DNA from: Promethearchaeota archaeon
GTDB taxonomy: Archaea > Asgardarchaeota > Lokiarchaeia > Sigyniarchaeales > SOKP01
Assembly: GCA_048941015.1 (NCBI GenBank)
Contig: JBHLNZ010000033.1
Location: 1-32,581, forward strand
Length of the DNA stretch: 32,581 nt
Direction: 5' to 3'
Shown here piece after piece: positions 1 through 11,085 of the stretch. The number at the start of each line of letters is the position of its first letter. Position 1 is the first letter of the stretch. A program made the position numbers and the translations under genes. The notes below the pieces were generated by a model. It worked only from the letters and a program-made list of their open reading frames with translations, was not told the DNA's origin and searched no databases.

Positions 1-695
1 GTTGTTAATTCACCACTGGAAATACCAAAAGTTGTTATTAGTAAAGTTTGAAGAGTTGTATTTGTAACTGCTTCGAGCCAGATCAGGATACCATCCATAT
101 TTACAAAAGTATAAGCATTTGCTTCATTCCATAAATTTATAGTCTCAGTAAGTGAAAGGCCACTGGGACTTGGCAATCCTACTTCGAAATATGGAGCTCC
201 TGCAAAAGCGGCACTAAGTTCACTTAAAAATCCACCAGGTAAAACTGCTGCTCCCTGTATTGTACCATTAGCCCATTGTTCATAAAATGCGAGTTGTGCT
301 AGTTCTGGTACTGTATAACCTGTTTCATCGAAAAGTAATAGTGGAACGAGATTCGTCATAAAGTTCCCTAACCAACCTAATAGTATCGGTAATTGCATTC
401 CAGTGAGGGAAAAAGCTCCGCTTAAATAACCTTGAAGAGTCCCATTTCCTTGCATTGCACCAACCCATATTAATATCCCGCTATCATTCACAAAGGAAAA
501 AGAATTTGAATCATCCCATAGATCCATACATATCGGTACCGTTATGTTAGTGGGAGTTGGAACGCCTGCTTCAAGACCCTTGGTATCTGGTGGTAGTGTA
601 TCCTTAAAGAGGCTTAAATCAATTCCATCTTCAACAACGGATCCATTTGCCCATTGAGAGTAAAATACTAATTCAGCATATTGTTCTATCGTATA
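1..695 (-). repeat. Two ~126-aa internal protein repeats
   Basis: YTIEQYAELVFYSQWANGSV...GLEAGVPTPTNITVPICMDLWDDSNSFSFVNDSGILIWVGA versus YTVPELAQLAFYEQWANGTI...YFEVGLPSPSGLSLTETINLWNEANAYTFVNMDGILIWLEA. The Trp codons at 653 and 275 are 378 nt apart. Confidence 0.85.
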
Positions 696-1448
696 CGGTG
701 GTGAATAACCTGCTTTTACTATAACCTCCCATAGATAATCACTAATATAATTAGCAAGAGCTCCAAGTTGAGTCCATGTAGCATTGTAATAGTATTGCAT
801 AGTTGCATTTAATGTTTGATCGCCTAAAGTTACATTAAGACAGAGTTCCATATAACCCAATAGACCTGTGCCTAATTCAAGATCTGTAATTAATCCTGGT
901 AAAGGCCCCACACCATATAATAAATTATTTTGAGCAGTTACAGTATAACCAAGAGTAAATGCATCAAAGTCTCCGTATAGCGTATCATAATAGTCTGAAA
1001 CTCCTTGAGGAGTGCCGTAATCTGCTTGAAAGGTAGGACTATTAAAAAATTGTTCTTTAGCAGCAACTAAACCAATGTATAAAGCGACACCATCAATTGT
1101 TTGATTTATCGCTTGAGCTGCTCCTGAACCATTAATGATTAGTGGTAGTTGTCCTACAGCTTCATCTTTGAGACCATCTAAGACTGCAGGTGTTGCTAGA
1201 ACGGGCAATTGTTCTTCTAACGTAGTAAGTGCTTCTGCTTCAATACCCAAAAGTACATCTGGTGTACCTAAAGGAGGTAACTGTTCTTCCAAGGCTGGAA
1301 CAGCTTCGTCTTGAATACTTAAAAGAGCTTCAGGAACTCCTTCAGCAACTTGATTGACAATCATTTGATTTAAAGTGTATCCTGTTGGTACTAAACCAAT
1401 GCCAACAGCGAGTAAAATTATTCCTATTATTAATTTAGATTTCGACAT
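1..1448 (-). CDS. Membrane-anchored extracellular repeat glycoprotein (5' part only; runs off the window edge); possible CD36/LIMP-2-like luminal repeats
   Basis: Not in the ORF track because there is no stop in the window. Manual translation from ATG at 1448 is open for 482 codons: MSKSKLIIGIILLAVGIGLVPTGYTLNQMIVNQVAEGVPEALLSIQ... It has an N-terminal hydrophobic anchor, 11 N-x-S/T sequons, 24-aa repeats and two ~126-aa FYxQWANG(S/T) repeats. Confidence 0.9.
   Translation of the reverse strand, partial: MSKSKLIIGIILLAVGIGLVPTGYTLNQMIVNQVAEGVPEALLSIQDEAVPALEEQLPPLGTPDVLLGIEAEALTTLEEQLPVLATPAVLDGLKDEAVGQLPLIINGSGAAQAINQTIDGVALYIGLVAAKEQFFNSPTFQADYGTPQGVSDYYDTLYGDFDAFTLGYTVTAQNNLLYGVGPLPGLITDLELGTGLLGYMELCLNVTLGDQTLNATMQYYYNATWTQLGALANYISDYLWEVIVKAGYSPPYTIEQYAELVFYSQWANGSVVEDGIDLSLFKDTLPPDTKGLEAGVPTPTNITVPICMDLWDDSNSFSFVNDSGILIWVGAMQGNGTLQGYLSGAFSLTGMQLPILLGWLGNFMTNLVPLLLFDETGYTVPELAQLAFYEQWANGTIQGAAVLPGGFLSELSAAFAGAPYFEVGLPSPSGLSLTETINLWNEANAYTFVNMDGILIWLEAVTNTTLQTLLITTFGISSGELT
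1134..1337 (-). repeat. About three tandem 24-aa amphipathic repeats in the N-terminal region of the edge protein
   Basis: VPEALLSIQDEAVPALEEQLPPLG / TPDVLLGIEAEALTTLEEQLPVLA / TPAVLDGLKDEAVGQLPLII. Confidence 0.8.
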
Positions 1449-1846: not shown

Positions 1847-3757
1847 TTGGATGAGTCAATAATTTATTTAATTCAGATATTTTGCATTTTTCTACTATTT
1901 TTTTCCATTATTTCCGGATTTGGAGGTATATTTAATTATTTCTTTCAAAAATGGAGTAAAATAAAATGGAACTTATCATTGCTTGAGAATATTCTAATAT
2001 CCTTTACAATTGGAATTATTTTTTACATCCAATTCGGATATCTTCTTACATTTTTCAGAATGTTTAATTTTTTTACAGCTTATCTACCGATTATCATTTT
2101 AACTTCAATGTTCTTAATTTTTTTAATTAAAAAAAAAATAATTCAGAAGATTTTTGTATCAATCAAACATAAAATAGAATCTAATAAAAAGGATTATTTG
2201 ATTAATATTTTAATTCTTTTTGGAATATTTATTTTTCAATTTATATCTTTCTTTCCTTTTGTAAATGAAACATCCGCTTTGTTAGCGGCAGATCCTTACT
2301 ATTGGACTGAAAATGTACTTTATCTTAATAATTATGGATTAATTAACACTGAGATAATGGGACCAAAATATCCATGGGGATTTGTCATTTATTGTTCAGG
2401 TAATTTATTAGGATTTCAAGATTTTGGAATTTCATATTATTTTATGAAATTTTCATTTTTTCCTTTTATCATGATATATTCTCTAATAATGTTTTCAATT
2501 TCTCAAAGATTATTTAAAAGCAAATTTGCGACTTTTTTCTGCCTATTATTAATTATTTCACAAAGTTATTTCATATATCGCGTAATTCAATTTATTTCAT
2601 CAAGCCTTGCAATACTATTAATTTTTTTATCATTTGTTGTACTTTTAACAGATATTCCAAATTACTTTCTTGGTATAATCTTATCAACTATATTTTTAAC
2701 CAATCCAGTATATTCATTTTTTTTTATACTCGCATTGGGGATTTTCTATCTAATAAAAATGATTATTTCTTATAAGACATATAAAATCATTTTAAAAGAA
2801 ATTATTCAGGTTATGATTTTATCAATAATCTGTTTAATTGTTTATGTTTATAGTGTAATTGTAATATATAATCAGGATCTTTTTACCATTATTAAATCTT
2901 TTATCGAGGGTTTCAACACAGGACTATCTATTACTCTTTCCTCTTTTATAGGAAGTTTTCAGCCATATCAATTAATTATTATTAATATACTCTTAGAGGG
3001 CTTATATGTTATTTTTTTTTCAGTATTACCCGTTATAAGTATCATTTTTCTAATTAAAAATCGTAAAGTTACGGTTAATAATGATTTTAATTTGTTTTTG
3101 ATTATTTGTGTAATTTTAGTTGGTATTTTTGTTTTAATATTACCCCATTTTTTATACTCGCGTTTAATTTTAATTTTTTATAATAGAATTGCTGAAGCTT
3201 TTTTACCAAGTATCGTAATTTTAGCAGGATATTCATTGAGATGGTTAAGTTTACTGTTCAAGAAAATAAAAGAAAAGATAAACTTAACTTTTTTTAAAAA
3301 TAATAGGAAAACTCAGAGAAATAATTCGAAATTAAGGGATTCTAAACATTTCTACATTATAATGTGTATAGGGATATCATTATTGATGTTAAATCATTTT
3401 TATGCTCGTGAAAATGTGTATATAGATTATCGATGGGATGATTCTATTATTGATTGCATCTTTTATATTCAAAATAATATTGAAAAAGAGTCAAACATCG
3501 CAATCAATGAAAATGACGAAACTTTTTCGCCTAATAATTTGCTTTTTGATTATGAATTGTATTTAATTCCCACAAATATTAGTTTAACTTTCTCTGAATT
3601 CATAAATTTTACAGAAGGAAATTCAATCGAATATTTAGTCATAAATTTATCCTTTTATAACGAAAACTTTACCATAGAATTTCAAAATTCTACTTCATTT
3701 TACAAATTAACTAGCGGAAATCTTTCAACAGATTTTAATTTATATGAGGTTTCTTAA
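1847..3757 (+). CDS. Polytopic membrane protein, probable GT-C fold glycosyltransferase
   Basis: 636 aa with more than 12 hydrophobic segments. The loop motif ADPYYW followed by YPWG is typical of a GT-C first external loop. The C-terminal soluble domain carries several sequons. TTG start; no WWDYG motif. Confidence 0.6.
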   Translation: MDESIIYLIQIFCIFLLFFSIISGFGGIFNYFFQKWSKIKWNLSLLENILISFTIGIIFYIQFGYLLTFFRMFNFFTAYLPIIILTSMFLIFLIKKKIIQKIFVSIKHKIESNKKDYLINILILFGIFIFQFISFFPFVNETSALLAADPYYWTENVLYLNNYGLINTEIMGPKYPWGFVIYCSGNLLGFQDFGISYYFMKFSFFPFIMIYSLIMFSISQRLFKSKFATFFCLLLIISQSYFIYRVIQFISSSLAILLIFLSFVVLLTDIPNYFLGIILSTIFLTNPVYSFFFILALGIFYLIKMIISYKTYKIILKEIIQVMILSIICLIVYVYSVIVIYNQDLFTIIKSFIEGFNTGLSITLSSFIGSFQPYQLIIINILLEGLYVIFFSVLPVISIIFLIKNRKVTVNNDFNLFLIICVILVGIFVLILPHFLYSRLILIFYNRIAEAFLPSIVILAGYSLRWLSLLFKKIKEKINLTFFKNNRKTQRNNSKLRDSKHFYIIMCIGISLLMLNHFYARENVYIDYRWDDSIIDCIFYIQNNIEKESNIAINENDETFSPNNLLFDYELYLIPTNISLTFSEFINFTEGNSIEYLVINLSFYNENFTIEFQNSTSFYKLTSGNLSTDFNLYEVS

Positions 3758-4993: not shown

Positions 4994-6217
4994 ATGAAAT
5001 TACAACTCGAAAAATATTCCTTTGTTAGAAAAAGTAAATTTTATCGCTTTTTCAGAGATATAATATTTCCTTTTGGTTTGAAAATCATTTCAAAAGTATT
5101 TAGCGATAAAATTGACGAGAAACTAATAATTATGGGAGGATATGGGGGAAATATTTATCTTGATAACACTAAGTATCTTTTTGAGTATCTTAATCAAATT
5201 TCAGATTATAAAGTTGTGTGGGTTGCAAAATCAAGGAAATTAGTAAAAGAACTTAAGCGAAAAGGGTATAATGCGATTCATATGTTAAATTTTATAACAA
5301 TTAAATGGCTAAGAAAAGCAAAATTTATTTTTTTTACCCATGGTATTTATGATGTTCTACCAATTGAATTTTCACCAAAAACAACCATTGTCCTGACATG
5401 GCATGGGACTCCGATAAAGAAAATAATTTTTGATGAAGATCTTGAATTTTTAACCTATACAAAATGGGGAAAGTATTTTAGATTAAAATTGAGATATAAC
5501 GATTATCTTAATTATATTCTAACTCCAACTAGAGATGAAAATGAGCATAGAATTTTAAGCTCAGCATTTAAAGTGCCAATTGACAAAATTCTCGCTTTAG
5601 GTTATCCGAGAAATGATATTTTATTTAATGAAGACAAAAATTTTATTAATGATTTAAAACAAAAATATCAAATTCCAGAGGATATTGAACGTGTAATATT
5701 ATATTGCCCTACTTTTAGGGATGATCATTCTTTAATGTTCTCAATTTCAATGAAAGATTTAAATGAATTAGAAAAATTGCTACGAGAAAAAAAATTACTT
5801 TTTCTATTAAAAGGGCATTATTTCATCCAAAATGTGAACTTTGATGAATATAAAAATATTAAAATAGTCCCTAAAGAGTCGGATATTCAAGAACTATACA
5901 TAATAACTGATATTCTTATCACAGATTATTCTTCAACAATGTTAGATTTTTCTTTATTGAATAGACCAATTTTACTATTTCCTTATGATTTTGATGAATA
6001 TAAAAAAGTTAGAGGGATGTATTATAATTTAGAAGATATTGCACCTGGACCATTAATCTTTACATTCCAAGAGCTTATCAATAATATTAGAGATATCGAG
6101 GATATTAATAAAAAATATGAGCAGAAACGCAATCTAATTAAAGAACGTTTCAATAAATATCTAGATGGTAAAACTAGTGAAAGAATTTTAGATTTTTTTA
6201 ATATAAGAAAAAGATAG
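4994..6217 (+). CDS. CDP-glycerol glycerophosphotransferase family protein (TagB/TagF-like); candidate phosphonyl transferase
   Basis: Motifs TWHGTPIKK, GYPRND, LYCPTFRD, ITDYSS.MLDF, FPYD..EY...RG.Y and DGKTSERI. It lies directly upstream of pepM. Confidence 0.9.
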   Translation: MKLQLEKYSFVRKSKFYRFFRDIIFPFGLKIISKVFSDKIDEKLIIMGGYGGNIYLDNTKYLFEYLNQISDYKVVWVAKSRKLVKELKRKGYNAIHMLNFITIKWLRKAKFIFFTHGIYDVLPIEFSPKTTIVLTWHGTPIKKIIFDEDLEFLTYTKWGKYFRLKLRYNDYLNYILTPTRDENEHRILSSAFKVPIDKILALGYPRNDILFNEDKNFINDLKQKYQIPEDIERVILYCPTFRDDHSLMFSISMKDLNELEKLLREKKLLFLLKGHYFIQNVNFDEYKNIKIVPKESDIQELYIITDILITDYSSTMLDFSLLNRPILLFPYDFDEYKKVRGMYYNLEDIAPGPLIFTFQELINNIRDIEDINKKYEQKRNLIKERFNKYLDGKTSERILDFFNIRKR

Positions 6218-6292
6218 TAGTTCTCAAGATTTAACTTTTCAAACCATCAATTAATCCCATTCAATATTTCCAACCAAAATTTTAAATAAAAG

Positions 6293-6302
6293 TTTTATAA
6301 AA
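6293..6302 (+). promoter_or_regulatory. Candidate archaeal TATA box for the phosphonate operon
   Basis: TTTTATAAAA preceded by purine-rich AATAAAAG, about 27-36 nt upstream of the pepM ATG. The AT-rich background makes this weak. Confidence 0.3.
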
Positions 6303-6328
6303 TAGAAATTTCCATTTTAATAGAAAAG

Positions 6329-8023
6329 ATGAGTTTAAAAAATAGAATTTCTCCCGAAGAAAGAAGAAAGTTATTAAAACGTTTACTTGAGCAAAAAAAA
6401 TTTATTAGAGCAATTGAAGCCCATAATGGTTTAAGTGCAATCATCGCAAATAATATTCATATAAAAGAAGGAAATGAAATTTACGAATTTGATGCTATTT
6501 GGGAGAGTAGCTTGACGGATAGTGCCGCAAAGGGATATCCCGATGCGGATATAATAGGTCCTGAATCAAGATATAACACAATTAGAGAGATTATCCATAG
6601 TTCAACAAAACCATTAATTGTTGATGGGGATACTGGTGGAGATGCTACCAGTTTTGAATATTTTGTAAGAGCCTTAGAAGATATGGGAGTCTCAATGGTA
6701 ATAATTGAAGATAAGACTTTTCCTAAAAGGAATAGTTTAGATCCTAAGTCTAAGCAAACTCAGGAGGATCCAAATACATTCACCGTAAAAATAGAAAGGG
6801 GTAAAAGTGTTCAATTATCTACTGAGTTTATGATCGCCGCCAGAATTGAAAGTTTTATCTCCGGAGCAGGTTTAGAAGATGCAATCTTTAGAGCTAAAAA
6901 GTATTTAAATGCGGGAGCTGATGCTATTATGATTCATTCTAAAAAAGATAATGCTGAAGATATCTTTAATTTTGCGCAAGAATATCATAAACTTTTAGAT
7001 GAATTAGAAGTGAAAAAACCTTTAATATGTGTTCCGACAACATATAATACCGTTTATGAAAATCAACTAAGAGAAAAGGGCTTCAATATTGTTATTTATG
7101 CAAATCATTTATTACGCGCAGCACATAAAGTAATGCGAGAAACAGCTTTAAATATTTTGAAAAGTAAAAGAGCATTCGAAGCAGAATCCTTATGTACTCC
7201 TATAAATACGATTTTTGAAGACGTGGGTTTTATTGAGGTAAGAGAAAAAGATTTAAAATATAAGAGAGGAAAAATTCGTACTATTATCCCTGCTGCGGGT
7301 AAAGATATCAATTTTGATATACCAAAAGCTTTAATAAAAATTAAAGGGAAAGAAATTTTATTAAGGCAGAAAGACAACTTGAAAAATTGTGGTATTGAAG
7401 ATATTACAGTTATTAAAGGATACAAGAAAGAACTAATCAATCTTGAAGGATTTAAATATATTATTAATAATGATTATGAAGATACTCATATATTACATTC
7501 TTTATTTAAAGCTGAAGAAGACATGGTCAATGGATTTATATATTTAAACTCTGATATCTTATTTGACCAACAAGTCATTGAAAATCTTTTAAATGTTAAA
7601 CATGACATTGTTTTAGTAGTTGATAATTCATATACATACCATAAACATGATTTAGATAAAAAACTTGATTTAGTTTTAGCAAAAAATAAACCTAGTGCAG
7701 AACATAGAATGCTGCATTTAAAGGAAAATGAAGCAATACGAATTGGAAAGACTATCGATAAAAATATGGCAGATTATGAATATGTTGGAATTGCTTACTT
7801 TTCTGAATATGGAGCGAATATTATACGGAAAATTTATCATGAATCTAAGATGAGCCATATGGGAAGGTTTCACGAAGCAGAATCATTTGAAAAAGCTTCA
7901 TTTACTGATTTTATTCAAGAAGTGATTGATCGAGGATTTAGAGTTAGTTTGTTGGAAGTTCATAAAGGATGGTATGAAATACATAATAAAAAAGATGTTG
8001 AAATAGTTGAAAAGCTATTTTAA
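6329..8023 (+). CDS. pepM: Phosphoenolpyruvate mutase fused to a C-terminal nucleotidyltransferase (PntC/LicC-like) domain
   Basis: Diagnostic EDKxxxxxNS motif (EDKTFPKRNS) plus EAHNGLSA, VDGDTGG, ARIES, GADAIMIHS, VPTTY and VIYANHLLRA. The C-terminal NTP-transferase fold starts at about aa 316 (IIPAAG...PKALI, GYKKE, SDILF, GWYEIH). Confidence 0.96.
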   Translation: MSLKNRISPEERRKLLKRLLEQKKFIRAIEAHNGLSAIIANNIHIKEGNEIYEFDAIWESSLTDSAAKGYPDADIIGPESRYNTIREIIHSSTKPLIVDGDTGGDATSFEYFVRALEDMGVSMVIIEDKTFPKRNSLDPKSKQTQEDPNTFTVKIERGKSVQLSTEFMIAARIESFISGAGLEDAIFRAKKYLNAGADAIMIHSKKDNAEDIFNFAQEYHKLLDELEVKKPLICVPTTYNTVYENQLREKGFNIVIYANHLLRAAHKVMRETALNILKSKRAFEAESLCTPINTIFEDVGFIEVREKDLKYKRGKIRTIIPAAGKDINFDIPKALIKIKGKEILLRQKDNLKNCGIEDITVIKGYKKELINLEGFKYIINNDYEDTHILHSLFKAEEDMVNGFIYLNSDILFDQQVIENLLNVKHDIVLVVDNSYTYHKHDLDKKLDLVLAKNKPSAEHRMLHLKENEAIRIGKTIDKNMADYEYVGIAYFSEYGANIIRKIYHESKMSHMGRFHEAESFEKASFTDFIQEVIDRGFRVSLLEVHKGWYEIHNKKDVEIVEKLF

Positions 8024-8059
8024 GAATAACTTAAATGTAATTTAATTGTTTAAATTTTA

Positions 8060-9208
8060 TTGAATCTAAGAATGTTAGAATATATTGGTTATAATTCCAT
8101 TCAAAAGTTAAAGAAAATTCTTAAAAATAATAATTTCAAAAAGATTTTTTTAGTTACAGGAAGGAAATCATTTGAGCAAGATGAAATCAAGCAAATTATT
8201 CTCAAATTAATAGATGGATATGACTATTATCATTTTAATGATTTTACACCAAATCCAAATATTTTAGATGTAAAAAAAGGATTAGACATTATACATCAGG
8301 AAAATTTTGATGTTATTGTAGCTATAGGAGGGGGTTCTGTAATTGATATGGCTAAATCAATTTCATTATTATCAAAAAATAATGAACCCCCAGAAAAAAT
8401 AATTAAGAAGGAAGTAAAAATAACTAATAGAGGAATTCCGTTAATAAGGATTCCTACAACAGCTGGTTCTGGCAGCGAAGCAACTCACTTTGCCGTAGTT
8501 TATATTGGGAAAACAAAGTACTCCTTGGCTGATAAGGATTTTATGATGCCAGATTTTGTCATAGTTGATCCTCAATTTACGTTAACATTACCAAAGAAGA
8601 TAACAGCAGATACCGGTATGGATGCACTAAGTCAAGCAATAGAATCTTTCTGGAATACCTATTCTACAAAAGAATCTAAAAATTATTCAAAAAAAGCAAT
8701 TGAGTTGATTATATCTAATTTAGTTAAATCAGTGAACCAACCAACAAGAAAATCAAGATATAATATGGCAATAGCAGCTAATTATGCTGGTAAAGCAATC
8801 AATATTACTAAAACAACCGCTTGTCATGCAATATCCTATCCAATAACCTCATATTTCAACATTCCTCATGGGCATGCTGTTGCTTTAACTTTACCTTCCA
8901 TGATTGTTTTTAATTCAGAGGTTAATCAAAACGATGTTTTAGACCCAAGAGGAGTGAAGTTTGTAAAATCTGAGATGAATAAACTAATTTCTATTATTGG
9001 AGTTTCTGAATTTCAAGAAGCTGAAGAAAAGATTATCAATATTATGAAACAGATCAATTTAGAAACTAAGTTAAGTGAATTGGGGATTAATTCATCAGAA
9101 GATATTGATATTATAATTAGAAATGGATTTACCCCAAATCGAGTAAAAAATAATCCCCGATTATTGACAGAACTTCAACTCAGAAAGATTCTGGAGGGAA
9201 TTAAATGA
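8060..9208 (+). CDS. phpC: Phosphonoacetaldehyde reductase (group III iron-containing alcohol dehydrogenase, HEP-forming)
   Basis: Motifs GGGSVIDMAK, IPTTAGSGSEATHFAV, DALSQAIES, TTACHAISYPIT...IPHGHAVA and R.KNNPR. It sits between pepM and ppd. The start is TTG 8060 or ATG 8072. Confidence 0.85.
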   Translation: MNLRMLEYIGYNSIQKLKKILKNNNFKKIFLVTGRKSFEQDEIKQIILKLIDGYDYYHFNDFTPNPNILDVKKGLDIIHQENFDVIVAIGGGSVIDMAKSISLLSKNNEPPEKIIKKEVKITNRGIPLIRIPTTAGSGSEATHFAVVYIGKTKYSLADKDFMMPDFVIVDPQFTLTLPKKITADTGMDALSQAIESFWNTYSTKESKNYSKKAIELIISNLVKSVNQPTRKSRYNMAIAANYAGKAINITKTTACHAISYPITSYFNIPHGHAVALTLPSMIVFNSEVNQNDVLDPRGVKFVKSEMNKLISIIGVSEFQEAEEKIINIMKQINLETKLSELGINSSEDIDIIIRNGFTPNRVKNNPRLLTELQLRKILEGIK

Positions 9209-9921
9209 AAGTTATTATCTTAAATGCGGGAATTGGAAAAAGATTTGGAGATCTAACTAAAAATAAACCAAAATGTCTCATTAAGATAACTAAAAAAGAA
9301 ACCATATTAGATCTTCAATTAAAAACTTTAATTGAGTGTAATTTTATAGATATAGTTATGTTAACTGGTCCTTTTGAAGATATGATAAAGAATCATGTGA
9401 ATGAGAATTACCCGATTTTGAATGTACAATATATACAAAATCCAATTTATAATCAAACAAATTATATATATTCTATTTATCTACTTAAAGATATTATTAA
9501 TGATGCCATAATATTATTACATGGAGATTTAATTTTTACCAAAAAAGTATTGGAACAAATAATTAATTCTGAAGAAAAGAACTGTGTAATTGTAAATAAA
9601 GAAATTTCAATTCCCAGAAAAGATTTTAAAGCATTAATAGTTAATGAAAAAATAATAAGAATAGGAGTCGACATTTTTGAACCTAATAGTGCATTTTTAG
9701 CGCCTTTATACAAATTATCAAAACAATTTTTTAGAACTTGGCTTAATAAAATTGAAAAATTTATAGAGCAGAATAAAGTAAATTGCTATGCTGAAGATGC
9801 TTTAAATGAGATATTATACAAATTAGATTTAAAACCGATTTATATTAACGATATTAATTGCATGGAAATTGATGATTTTAATGATTTAGAGAGAATTAAA
9901 AAATATTTTATTGAAAAGTGA
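9205..9921 (+). CDS. Phosphocholine/phosphonate cytidylyltransferase (LicC/PntC-like)
   Basis: Motifs NAGIGKRFGDLTKNKPKCL, NPIYNQTNYIYS, LHGDLIF, YAEDALN and EIDDFNDL. It has an ATGA overlap with the upstream reductase. Confidence 0.85.
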   Translation: MKVIILNAGIGKRFGDLTKNKPKCLIKITKKETILDLQLKTLIECNFIDIVMLTGPFEDMIKNHVNENYPILNVQYIQNPIYNQTNYIYSIYLLKDIINDAIILLHGDLIFTKKVLEQIINSEEKNCVIVNKEISIPRKDFKALIVNEKIIRIGVDIFEPNSAFLAPLYKLSKQFFRTWLNKIEKFIEQNKVNCYAEDALNEILYKLDLKPIYINDINCMEIDDFNDLERIKKYFIEK

Positions 9922-9948: not shown

Positions 9949-11085
9949 ATGATTTTATGTCAAGAATTTTTTGAAATTTTAAAGGAAAAAGGATTTTCTT
10001 TTTTTACTGGAATTCCTGATTCCACTTTTAAGGAATGGATCAAATTTATTATAGATAACGATGGTGGAGTTTTAAAACATATCATAGCATGTAATGAATG
10101 TGAGGCAATTGCTTTAGCTGCTGGCTACCATTTAGCAACTAAAAAAATAGGTGTTGTTTATATGCAAAATTCTGGTCTTGGTAAGACAGTAAACCCCCTT
10201 ACTTCTCTATGTGATCCTGATGTTTATTCTATACCTATTCTTTTAATGATAGGATGGCGTGGAGAGCCTGAGACAAAAGATGCTCCACAACATAAGAAAA
10301 TGGGAAGAATAACCTTATCATTATTAGATACACTTCAAATTCCCTATAGTATAATAGAACAAAATATTGAAAAGATTAGGTTAGAACTTAATAAAGTATT
10401 ACAGTATTTTAAAAATAAAAAAGGGCCTTATGCTTTTATCATACGACCTAACTTATTCCAAAAATATGATGCAAAAGTGAAAAAAGATAATGATTACATT
10501 ATAACAAGAGAAGAAGCAATTAATTTGATAATGGATAATTTAGATGGTAATGAAATTATTGTATCTACTACGGGATATACTTCTAGAGAATTATTTGAAT
10601 ATCGAGAATCAAGAAAAAAGAACCACCATCTAAGTTTTTATAATATTGGATCTATGGGTTGCGCTAGCTCAATTGGTCTTAGTATAGCACTGGAAAAACC
10701 GAATACAAAAGTTATCGTTTTTGATGGGGATGCAGCGGCTATTATGCAAATGGGTGCATTTACTACGATTGGTAAATATAAACCTTCTAATTTTACACAT
10801 ATTATATTTGATAATAGTGCTCATGAATCTACTGGGGGTCAGCCCACAAATTCAAATTCTTCTGACTTATTACAAATTGCACTTTCTTGTAATTATAAAT
10901 TTGGATTATATATTAAAAACATAAGTGAATTGAATAATTCGATTAAATTTATTAAAAAATCAGAAGGTCCTATTATTTTAATCATTAAAATAAAGCAGGG
11001 TTCAAGATCTAATTTGAAGAGACCTGAAAAGGATCCAAAAGATTATAAAGAACTTTTTATGAGTCATCTTACAAGCTTAAAATAA
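9949..11085 (+). CDS. aepY: Phosphonopyruvate decarboxylase (ThDP-dependent)
   Basis: Motifs GIPDS, YMQNSGLG..VNPLTSL, IGWRGEP...DAPQH, STTGYTSRELF, GSMGCASSIGL and the ThDP motif FDGDAA...FDNSAHESTGGQP. Confidence 0.95.
   Translation: MILCQEFFEILKEKGFSFFTGIPDSTFKEWIKFIIDNDGGVLKHIIACNECEAIALAAGYHLATKKIGVVYMQNSGLGKTVNPLTSLCDPDVYSIPILLMIGWRGEPETKDAPQHKKMGRITLSLLDTLQIPYSIIEQNIEKIRLELNKVLQYFKNKKGPYAFIIRPNLFQKYDAKVKKDNDYIITREEAINLIMDNLDGNEIIVSTTGYTSRELFEYRESRKKNHHLSFYNIGSMGCASSIGLSIALEKPNTKVIVFDGDAAAIMQMGAFTTIGKYKPSNFTHIIFDNSAHESTGGQPTNSNSSDLLQIALSCNYKFGLYIKNISELNNSIKFIKKSEGPIILIIKIKQGSRSNLKRPEKDPKDYKELFMSHLTSLK

Follow-up and report, generated by a model that had tools for sequence, protein, structure and literature searches.

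A Lokiarchaeal surface-protein family without a beta-barrel, built from the helical module of long-form CD36 apices

The literature regards CD36/scavenger receptor class B (SR-B) receptors as a family of eukaryotes. Does an Asgard archaeon encode a relative of them, and if so, of which part? The question is raised by a gene at the very start of contig JBHLNZ010000033.1 from a Promethearchaeota archaeon (GenBank assembly GCA_048941015.1; 3.59 Mb, 29% G+C, 144 contigs). The window, as we call the stretch of DNA analysed here, is the whole of that contig, with its length of 32,581 nucleotides (nt). The gene occupies a minus-strand frame at 3..1448, encodes 482 amino acids (aa) from an ATG at 1446-1448, and runs without a stop codon up to the contig end. 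From the sequence alone, an original prediction had raised two possibilities, a prokaryotic relative of the whole SR-B family or one of its helical insert only. The first suggestion fell, there being no match to the Pfam CD36 family (PF01130), no match to a profile of the CD36 core and no beta-core in the model of an orthologue. The second was borne out by reciprocal profile matches, from hidden Markov models (HMMs) built on Lokiarchaeal and on eukaryotic modules only. The gene belongs to a new, uncharacterised, Asgard-restricted family of barrel-less proteins built from the module that expands the CD36 apex. Below, G000 is the genome, C81 (the window), C48 and C33 are its contigs, P0001 is the window protein, and P0007 is its orthologue. 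The parts of the gene are these:

3..1448, minus strand: coding sequence of the barrel-less 'QWAN-repeat' surface protein, 482 aa, with its C-terminal ~190 aa beyond the contig end
aa 1-5, minus strand: basic N-terminus MSKSK, presumably cytoplasmic
1380..1433, minus strand: N-terminal membrane anchor, a hydrophobic helix (aa 6-20), and the residues P-T-G (aa 21-23)
1122..1337, minus strand: three tandem 24-aa helical stalk repeats (aa 38-61, 62-85 and 86-109)
696..1121, minus strand: apical helical domain (aa 110-251), with five of the protein's N-x-S/T sequons
318..695, minus strand: module 1, a five-helix 126-aa 'QWAN' module (aa 252-377)
3..317, minus strand: module 2 (aa 378-482), 105 of ~128 residues before the contig end

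The anchor and the two 126-aa repeats that had been described from the sequence are both real, except that repeat 2 is incomplete and stops after 105 aa. The motifs FYSQWANGS at aa 262 and FYEQWANGT at aa 388 set the period of 126 aa, and module 1 continues with ExGxP, LWD, FVN, GILIW and WL. Self-alignment of aa 252-353 with aa 378-481 scored 173 (152 at a control split), where shuffled sequences scored 35 +/- 5.6 and at most 52; by profile-profile comparison of the 66 orthologues (hhalign), repeat 1 matched repeat 2 at E 8e-47. The 'QWAN' module is a name defined in this analysis and not a curated family. A profile of 131 diverse module units gave module 1 a score of 151 bits and module 2 a score of 104 bits over profile positions 1-102, and W15, E42 and W77 are invariant among those units. 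Upstream, the stalk repeats read VPEALL..EEQLPPLG, TPDVLL.. and TPAVLD.., and among the 66 orthologues P21 is invariant, with T22 and G23 nearly so. The apical domain may be a degenerate partial module; its hhalign match to the modules is weak, with E 1.5e-3 across 42 columns.

To what is this module related? A profile of alignment A1 (66 sequences, the 674-aa orthologue P0007 first) was searched against 1.84 billion representative proteins (Z = 1.84e9) and matched only 285 of them. The distant, longer matches proved to be genuine CD36 proteins, which PF01130 recognises at E 1e-33 to 1e-42 or at 1e-79 to 1e-90, except that one long match, P0236, reached only E 1e-6. CD36 proteins that carry the module include the following:

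Oomycete: Thraustotheca clavata OQR93551.1
Oomycete: Aphanomyces cochlioides KAG9414753.1, annotated 'scavenger receptor class B'
Amoebozoa: Cavostelium apophysatum EP01114_P006521
Other eukaryote: Muranothrix gubernata
Asgard archaea: Hodarchaeales MHA2363615.1, Kariarchaeaceae MHA2249150.1 and Heimdallarchaeota MCY3415128.1

In these proteins the CD36 profile is split into an N-piece up to about position 150 and a C-piece from about position 150, and the module region lies between the two. A module HMM made from 198 units of barrel-less Lokiarchaeal proteins only, with E-values at the same Z, aligned over its full length with Cavostelium residues 348-458 (FYQQWANAT...; 76 bits, E 2e-16). The same HMM gave 58 bits for Muranothrix, 114 bits for the Hodarchaeales protein (81-114 for the Hodarchaeales and Heimdallarchaeota proteins together) and 97 bits for the Kariarchaeaceae protein. 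The oomycete proteins reached 135-154 bits, spread over up to nine copies. Run in the opposite direction, an HMM of six eukaryotic modules matched four of the 8561 six-frame open reading frames (ORFs) of the window's own genome. These were a paralogue on C48 (E 1.9e-34), the window gene (1.4e-32) and two CD36 genes (3e-8 and 6.5e-3). The window gene was likewise matched by an HMM of CD36-embedded archaeal modules (2.1e-52) and by the single Cavostelium module (phmmer, 7.7e-22). The window modules also carry the ordered motifs of the module, FYxQWAN(G/A)(T/S), fExG, LW(D/N), sF(V/L)N, GxxxWxxA and QLxxILxWL.

Helical repeats rich in Leu and Trp could resemble one another by chance or through composition, and single oomycete copies are indeed weak, many having a domain E above 1 at this Z. 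However, full-length single-module matches score 58-114 bits, the eukaryote-only HMM picked out those four ORFs of the genome and nothing else, and the motif order is the same on both sides (FYxQWAN(G/A)(T/S), LW, sF.N, G..W..A, QL..IL.WL). We consequently give next to no credence to a chance or compositional origin of the likeness.

The correspondence extends beyond the module. About 360 residues (family profile 31-394) are collinear with the Asgard long-form CD36 proteins, and the apical domain is collinear with the start of the CD36 apex insert in the Hodarchaeales and Heimdallarchaeota proteins and in Cavostelium (profile positions 113-402). These profile comparisons show the module and the region preceding it to be homologous to, and collinear with, the apex insert of genuine long-form CD36/SR-B proteins. 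By the same comparisons, such CD36 proteins occur in Asgard archaea and in eukaryotes (Amoebozoa, oomycetes and a euglenozoan). The contigs that carry the archaeal CD36 genes look prokaryotic, with TFB, NadA, ParA and MarR neighbours.

Published sequences point the same way. In Supplementary File 1 of Boohar et al. 2023 (PMC10715195), D. discoideum SR-B_2 is equated with LmpA, and the LmpA printed there reads ...YFYQQWANATSIP...LLFNSSNENSILNQEIGSTLWINA...LTVDQIDMILNWWLNDF. Compared by eye, LmpA has the motif order of the module, FYQQWANAT included. The Dictyostelium LmpA stretch that the original prediction had quoted was essentially right, and is printed in that file as Dicdi_SR-B_2. D. purpureum SR-B_1 and SR-B_3 have EQWANAT and EQWANGT (PMC10715195). 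The apex expansions of non-metazoan SR-Bs have been described as lineage-specific and independent, and as not homologous to any known domain (PMC10715195). The present data contradict independent apex expansions in the case of Amoebozoa, oomycetes and Muranothrix. That one ancient module underlies the CD36 heads of protists and Asgard archaea is well supported at the level of homology, be it through ancestry or through transfer.

The apex region of SR-B_3 from Bigelowiella natans (Rhizaria) has LIDQWANTDSTP (PMC10715195, Supplementary File 1). This likeness, at the motif level only, raises the possibility that a fourth eukaryotic group has the module, perhaps in diverged form.

If the module belongs to CD36 heads, could the window protein be a true CD36/SR-B member whose beta-core lies in the part beyond the contig end? 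Two terminal transmembrane (TM) helices are a topology held in common with CD36, and the motif cited in the original prediction points to CD36 proteins. Under the operational definition of PMC10715195, two TM helices flank a large extracytoplasmic domain, and this arrangement is present, with the C-terminal anchor seen in orthologues and in a paralogue. However, PF01130 gave no match to P0001 even at E up to 10. Among the 120 homologues listed there was no Pfam match, PF01130 included. A local HMM of the CD36 C-piece matched 18 other proteins, none of them from the barrel-less family. Orthologues of 83% identity continue for only ~190 aa past the point of the break, through a third module and a TM helix, and these ~190 residues are too few for a beta-core of ~400 aa. 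By comparison with P0007, what lies beyond the contig end is the rest of module 2, module 3 and the C-terminal TM helix. It had been proposed to recover the full coding sequence from an adjacent contig, but no other contig of the assembly has the remainder. A sediment metagenome, possibly the source sample, supplied a 412-nt unitig that extends 112 nt past window position 1 and contains, not a core, but another module. This unitig has a third copy of segment 273-328, 384 nt (128 aa) downstream, which is the spacing from module 2 to module 3 in the orthologue. The contig end is therefore an assembly break within tandem repeats. Taken with the all-alpha model of the orthologue, these results leave only a very slim chance that the protein is a CD36/SR-B member with a hidden core.

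In four metagenome runs, the unitigs of the window gene end or change over at the conserved QWAN segments (window 250-330 and 640-740), and several near-identical strain variants are present among them. Together, the breaks and the variants explain why assemblies truncate genes of the barrel-less family.

Structure prediction agrees with the profile searches. AlphaFold2, run on A1 for the 674-aa orthologue, returned a mean predicted local distance difference test (pLDDT) score of 92.1 and a predicted template-modelling (pTM) score of 0.75. The model is all-alpha; no strand in it reaches three residues, and so it does not contain the CD36 beta-core for which a search had been proposed. Its layout is a helix over residues 2-125 (TM and stalk), the apical domain, three five-helix modules, a long helix and a C-terminal TM helix. 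The stalk repeats form part of one long helix, residues 38-125; the N-terminal anchor is modelled as a helix continuous with that stalk, and the helices of the apical domain have pLDDT above 90. A single window module, predicted from A2 (the alignment of 131 diverse module units), gave pLDDT 96.7 and pTM 0.89. A lipid tunnel is likewise absent, as the all-alpha model has no barrel to hold one. The window protein is thus without the CD36 beta-barrel and lipid tunnel and is not a CD36/SR-B member.

Fold searches returned no relative of known structure. Foldseek against the Protein Data Bank (PDB), which had also been proposed, found nothing at E <= 0.001 with either the full model (best 0.07) or the single module (best 3.3). 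VIA-align against 48,161 chains reached at best Z 8.7 for the full model, over only 60-80 residues of a helical hairpin in matches that pair its first and last helices. For the single module its best was Z 4.3, to three homeodomain-like helices, and no chain reached Z >= 5. No CD36 or LIMP-2 chain was listed in these structure searches, which is not proof of a different fold. A PDB sequence search gave no match at E <= 10, the ESM Atlas gave no usable match, and NCBIfam matched neither P0001 nor P0007. One Pfam match, to DUF3185 (E 2.5e-4, below the cut-off), covered the TM helix only and was rejected as compositional. Nor was an archaeal S-layer (surface-layer) domain or PGF-CTERM signal seen, as judged from the lack of Pfam and NCBIfam matches and from C-terminal anchors without a PGF motif.

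How, then, does the window protein compare with known CD36 systems? The protist long-form SR-Bs (Dictyostelium LmpA/B/C, oomycetes and Cavostelium) have a homologous helical module of ~125 aa with the same motif order, in one or two copies in amoebozoans and at least nine in oomycetes. They share with the barrel-less family two terminal TM helices around a large extracytoplasmic domain, and the region before the module in the window's family is collinear with the start of their apex insert. In the protist long forms, however, the module is inserted in the apex of a PF01130 beta-barrel with a lipid tunnel, whereas the window protein consists of stalk, apical domain and modules only, with no barrel. 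Asgard long-form CD36 proteins, which are of the same phylum and have the same module, keep the core (E 1e-79 to 1e-90) and carry a single module, unlike the array of the window's family. Vertebrate CD36, SR-BI and LIMP-2 (short forms with a three-helix apex bundle) also have two terminal TM helices, a hairpin topology and a glycosylated ectodomain. The site of the module in the long forms corresponds to their ligand-binding helices alpha4/alpha5 (PMC10715195). In contrast to these vertebrate proteins, the window protein has no barrel and no tunnel, and no sequence match to PF01130 or to a PDB chain.

The family itself is well populated. A word-indexed search found at least 149 relatives, none of which has a Pfam domain or a name beyond 'hypothetical'. 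Wherever a relative carries an organism name it is Asgard, from metagenome-assembled genomes (MAGs) of Lokiarchaeota/Promethearchaeota, Hermodarchaeota and Thorarchaeota. In the closest complete relatives, for example P0007 (674 aa, 83% identity), the 24-aa segments and the modules each number three, and a hydrophobic helix near the C-terminus is followed by K/R. Other members have two modules (519 aa) or four (826 and 841 aa). Across 77 Asgard MAG loci, three modules were counted in 40 ORFs, two in 23 and four in 12, with a maximum of eight. Within the window's own genome there is a complete paralogue (G000:C48:34471-36111) of 546 aa, with two modules and both anchors. The second, C-terminal TM helix that had been predicted is therefore present in this paralogue as in the full-length orthologues, and the window copy stops before it.

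Stalk and modules vary together. In the sequences read directly, segments and modules numbered 2/2, 3/3, 4/4 and 4/4, with 2/2 again for the paralogue. In a set of 127 full-length, non-redundant members of the barrel-less family, which as relatives are not independent, the median length from PTG to the first module was 209, 232, 252 and 305 aa for two, three, four and six modules. Each extra module thus adds ~22-24 aa. These counts show a common architecture of an N-terminal anchor, a long helix of n 24-aa segments, the apical domain, n 126-aa modules and a C-terminal anchor. For the window gene n = 3 is expected, and the window holds 1.8 modules.

Of the 77 loci, one alone bears a non-Asgard label: a homologue of 74% identity, L022 (DATKTW010000076.1, 1-1293), comes from a MAG named 'Candidatus Nanopelagicaceae bacterium'. 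L022 is most likely a mis-binned Lokiarchaeal contig.

Module and PF01130 profiles were searched in 301 Asgard genomes. The module was present in 50, comprising 41 of the 68 genomes in the window's family (usually with 2-9 matches), two of the seven in its order, and others elsewhere that have one match per genome and occur only where a CD36 core is also carried. In one of these (G181) the module match sits between two CD36 pieces of one ORF. PF01130 was found in 21 genomes: 11 of the 68 in the window's family, none of the seven in its order and nine in other families. The barrel-less proteins are found mainly in a single Lokiarchaeal family, and a genome that has them usually encodes several paralogues.

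What might such proteins do? Of the whole picture, a barrel-less rod of CD36-apex modules with a role in recognition is the explanation we consider probable. Since the termini are basic, both would lie in the cytoplasm. The ectodomain is acidic (69 D+E versus 13 K+R in P0007), and we infer that it folds back on itself, with the stalk helix going up and the modules coming down as a hairpin rod. This fold is suggested by the covariation of segments and modules, by two adjacent terminal anchors and by the VIA-align matches that pair the first and last helices of the model. If each module is docked by one stalk segment, the length of the rod would scale with the number of modules. Each module could carry an N-glycan on its conserved QWAN-G/A-T/S sequon; 183 of 198 units in one module set and 121 of 131 in the other retain it, as do the Cavostelium, Muranothrix and Hodarchaeales copies. 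In CD36 the apex is the ligand-sensing site, and its expansions replace helices alpha4/alpha5 (PMC10715195). The rod may thus display the recognition surface found atop long-form CD36 receptors and act as a cell-surface protein for recognition of ligands or contacts (an adhesin or coat). With no tunnel, the rod itself could not deliver lipid into the membrane. The most likely role of the protein is to recognise ligands or contacts as an extracellular rod, glycosylated and adjustable in length, that has no lipid-tunnel activity.

The main rival is a purely structural role, which explains the same data. The protein would be mainly a surface-coat glycoprotein, similar to a surface layer (S-layer), and its kinship with the CD36 head would be historical only, with no shared ligand binding. 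The ectodomain is very acidic and rich in sequons (11 in the window protein), genomes carry several paralogues with two to eight modules, and the window gene adjoins a surface-glycan biosynthesis island of ~26 kb. About 30 of the 42 module-positive genomes searched in the window's family also yielded no CD36 core. However, four tryptophans and a glutamate are conserved from archaea to eukaryotes, which is more than a spacer seems to need. Of the 68 genomes searched in the window's own family, 27 gave no match, 17 of these being listed at 71-100% completeness, and such absence would be odd for an essential envelope protein. The glycan-island neighbourhood is not conserved either. All considered, a mainly structural role seems doubtful to us, although it carries real weight.

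Several points besides this rival tell against the recognition rod. The module has no solved structural relative, so the fold offers no hint of function. The lack of a conserved gene neighbourhood counts here as well, as a glycan island lies beside the window gene and unrelated genes surround P0007 (locus L006). Moreover, the two tandem CD36 genes of the same genome, G000:C33:2863-5310 (815 aa) and 5824-8526 (900 aa), have heads that match only the C-terminal half of the module and do so more weakly, at 47 and 27 bits, than the amoebozoan head at 76 bits.

The same two genes raise a further alternative, in which the barrel-less protein is an accessory partner of the cell's CD36-type receptors, paired with them head to head for capture or handover of hydrophobic cargo. 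Their heads have part of the module, and their TM1-PTG-juxtamembrane segment is similar to that of the barrel-less family, aligning at 16-20 bits. Wherever a CD36 core was found in the window's family, the genome matched the module profile too, although the weak module matches in two such genomes (G186 and G279) may be the CD36 heads themselves. However, the genes are unlinked, with the barrel-less ones on C81 and C48 and the CD36 genes on C33, and most of the module-positive genomes searched have no detectable CD36 core. As the module occurs without a core in those ~30 genomes, the family does not depend on a CD36 partner, and we consider an accessory role improbable.

To place the two kinds of protein relative to each other, a quick-search tree was made of 50 modules (130 columns) from 12 barrel-less proteins and 12 CD36 heads, without the C33 heads and the remaining oomycete copies, which are partial. 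Support (96) was confined to the cluster formed by CD36-embedded modules of archaeal and metagenomic origin, the eukaryotic rows stood on long branches, and the tree does not resolve whether the barrel-less family came from a CD36 head or the reverse. Only tentatively, then, do we suggest that the QWAN module is an ancient extracellular domain of Asgard archaea and eukaryotes that had joined the CD36 apex before the last common ancestor of eukaryotes lived. If so, the long-form heads of amoebozoans, oomycetes and the euglenozoan would be ancestral, or at least homologous, and not separate expansions. In Lokiarchaeia the head would, in addition, have become detached from the barrel and been amplified to give surface rods of adjustable length, and these rods would be a candidate apparatus for recognition or contact on the cells closest to the eukaryotic ancestor.

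The module amounts to a definable, previously unnamed domain behind the apices of three eukaryotic supergroups and several Asgard lineages, able to exist alone, without the lipid-tunnel barrel. The analysis yields a seed alignment and a high-confidence model for this new domain family. It reopens the question of the ancestral shape of the CD36 apex, and bears on the part the head plays in the recognition of particles and lipids and on what Asgard cell surfaces use for contact.

The window gene itself is native to its genome. Its G+C content of 38%, against 29%, might suggest horizontal transfer, which was rejected; the excess lies at codon positions 1 and 2, and G+C at third positions (0.195) matches that of the neighbouring genes. 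The content is raised because the protein is rich in Ala, Gly, Pro, Asp and Glu.

Next to the gene, and divergent from it, window positions 1847-3757 (plus strand) encode a very hydrophobic polytopic membrane protein of 636 aa, with no Pfam or NCBIfam match. As a glycan island follows, this protein may be an unrecognised membrane enzyme of a glycan-processing or polymerase type. The island, of ~26 kb, spans window positions 3840-29318 and includes the following:

UDP-GlcNAc 2-epimerase, TagF-like CDP-glycerol glycerophosphotransferase and a heparinase II/III-like protein
Several family 4 glycosyltransferases (GT4), a flippase, a methyltransferase, a phosphodiesterase and rhamnose-type epimerases
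6329-8023: phosphonate branch, phosphoenolpyruvate (PEP) mutase fused to a nucleotidyltransferase
8060-9208: phosphonate branch, iron-type alcohol dehydrogenase (Fe-ADH)
9205-9921: phosphonate branch, nucleotidyltransferase
9949-11085: phosphonate branch, thiamine pyrophosphate (TPP) decarboxylase

A possible phosphonate-decorated glycan in a Lokiarchaeon may merit separate study.

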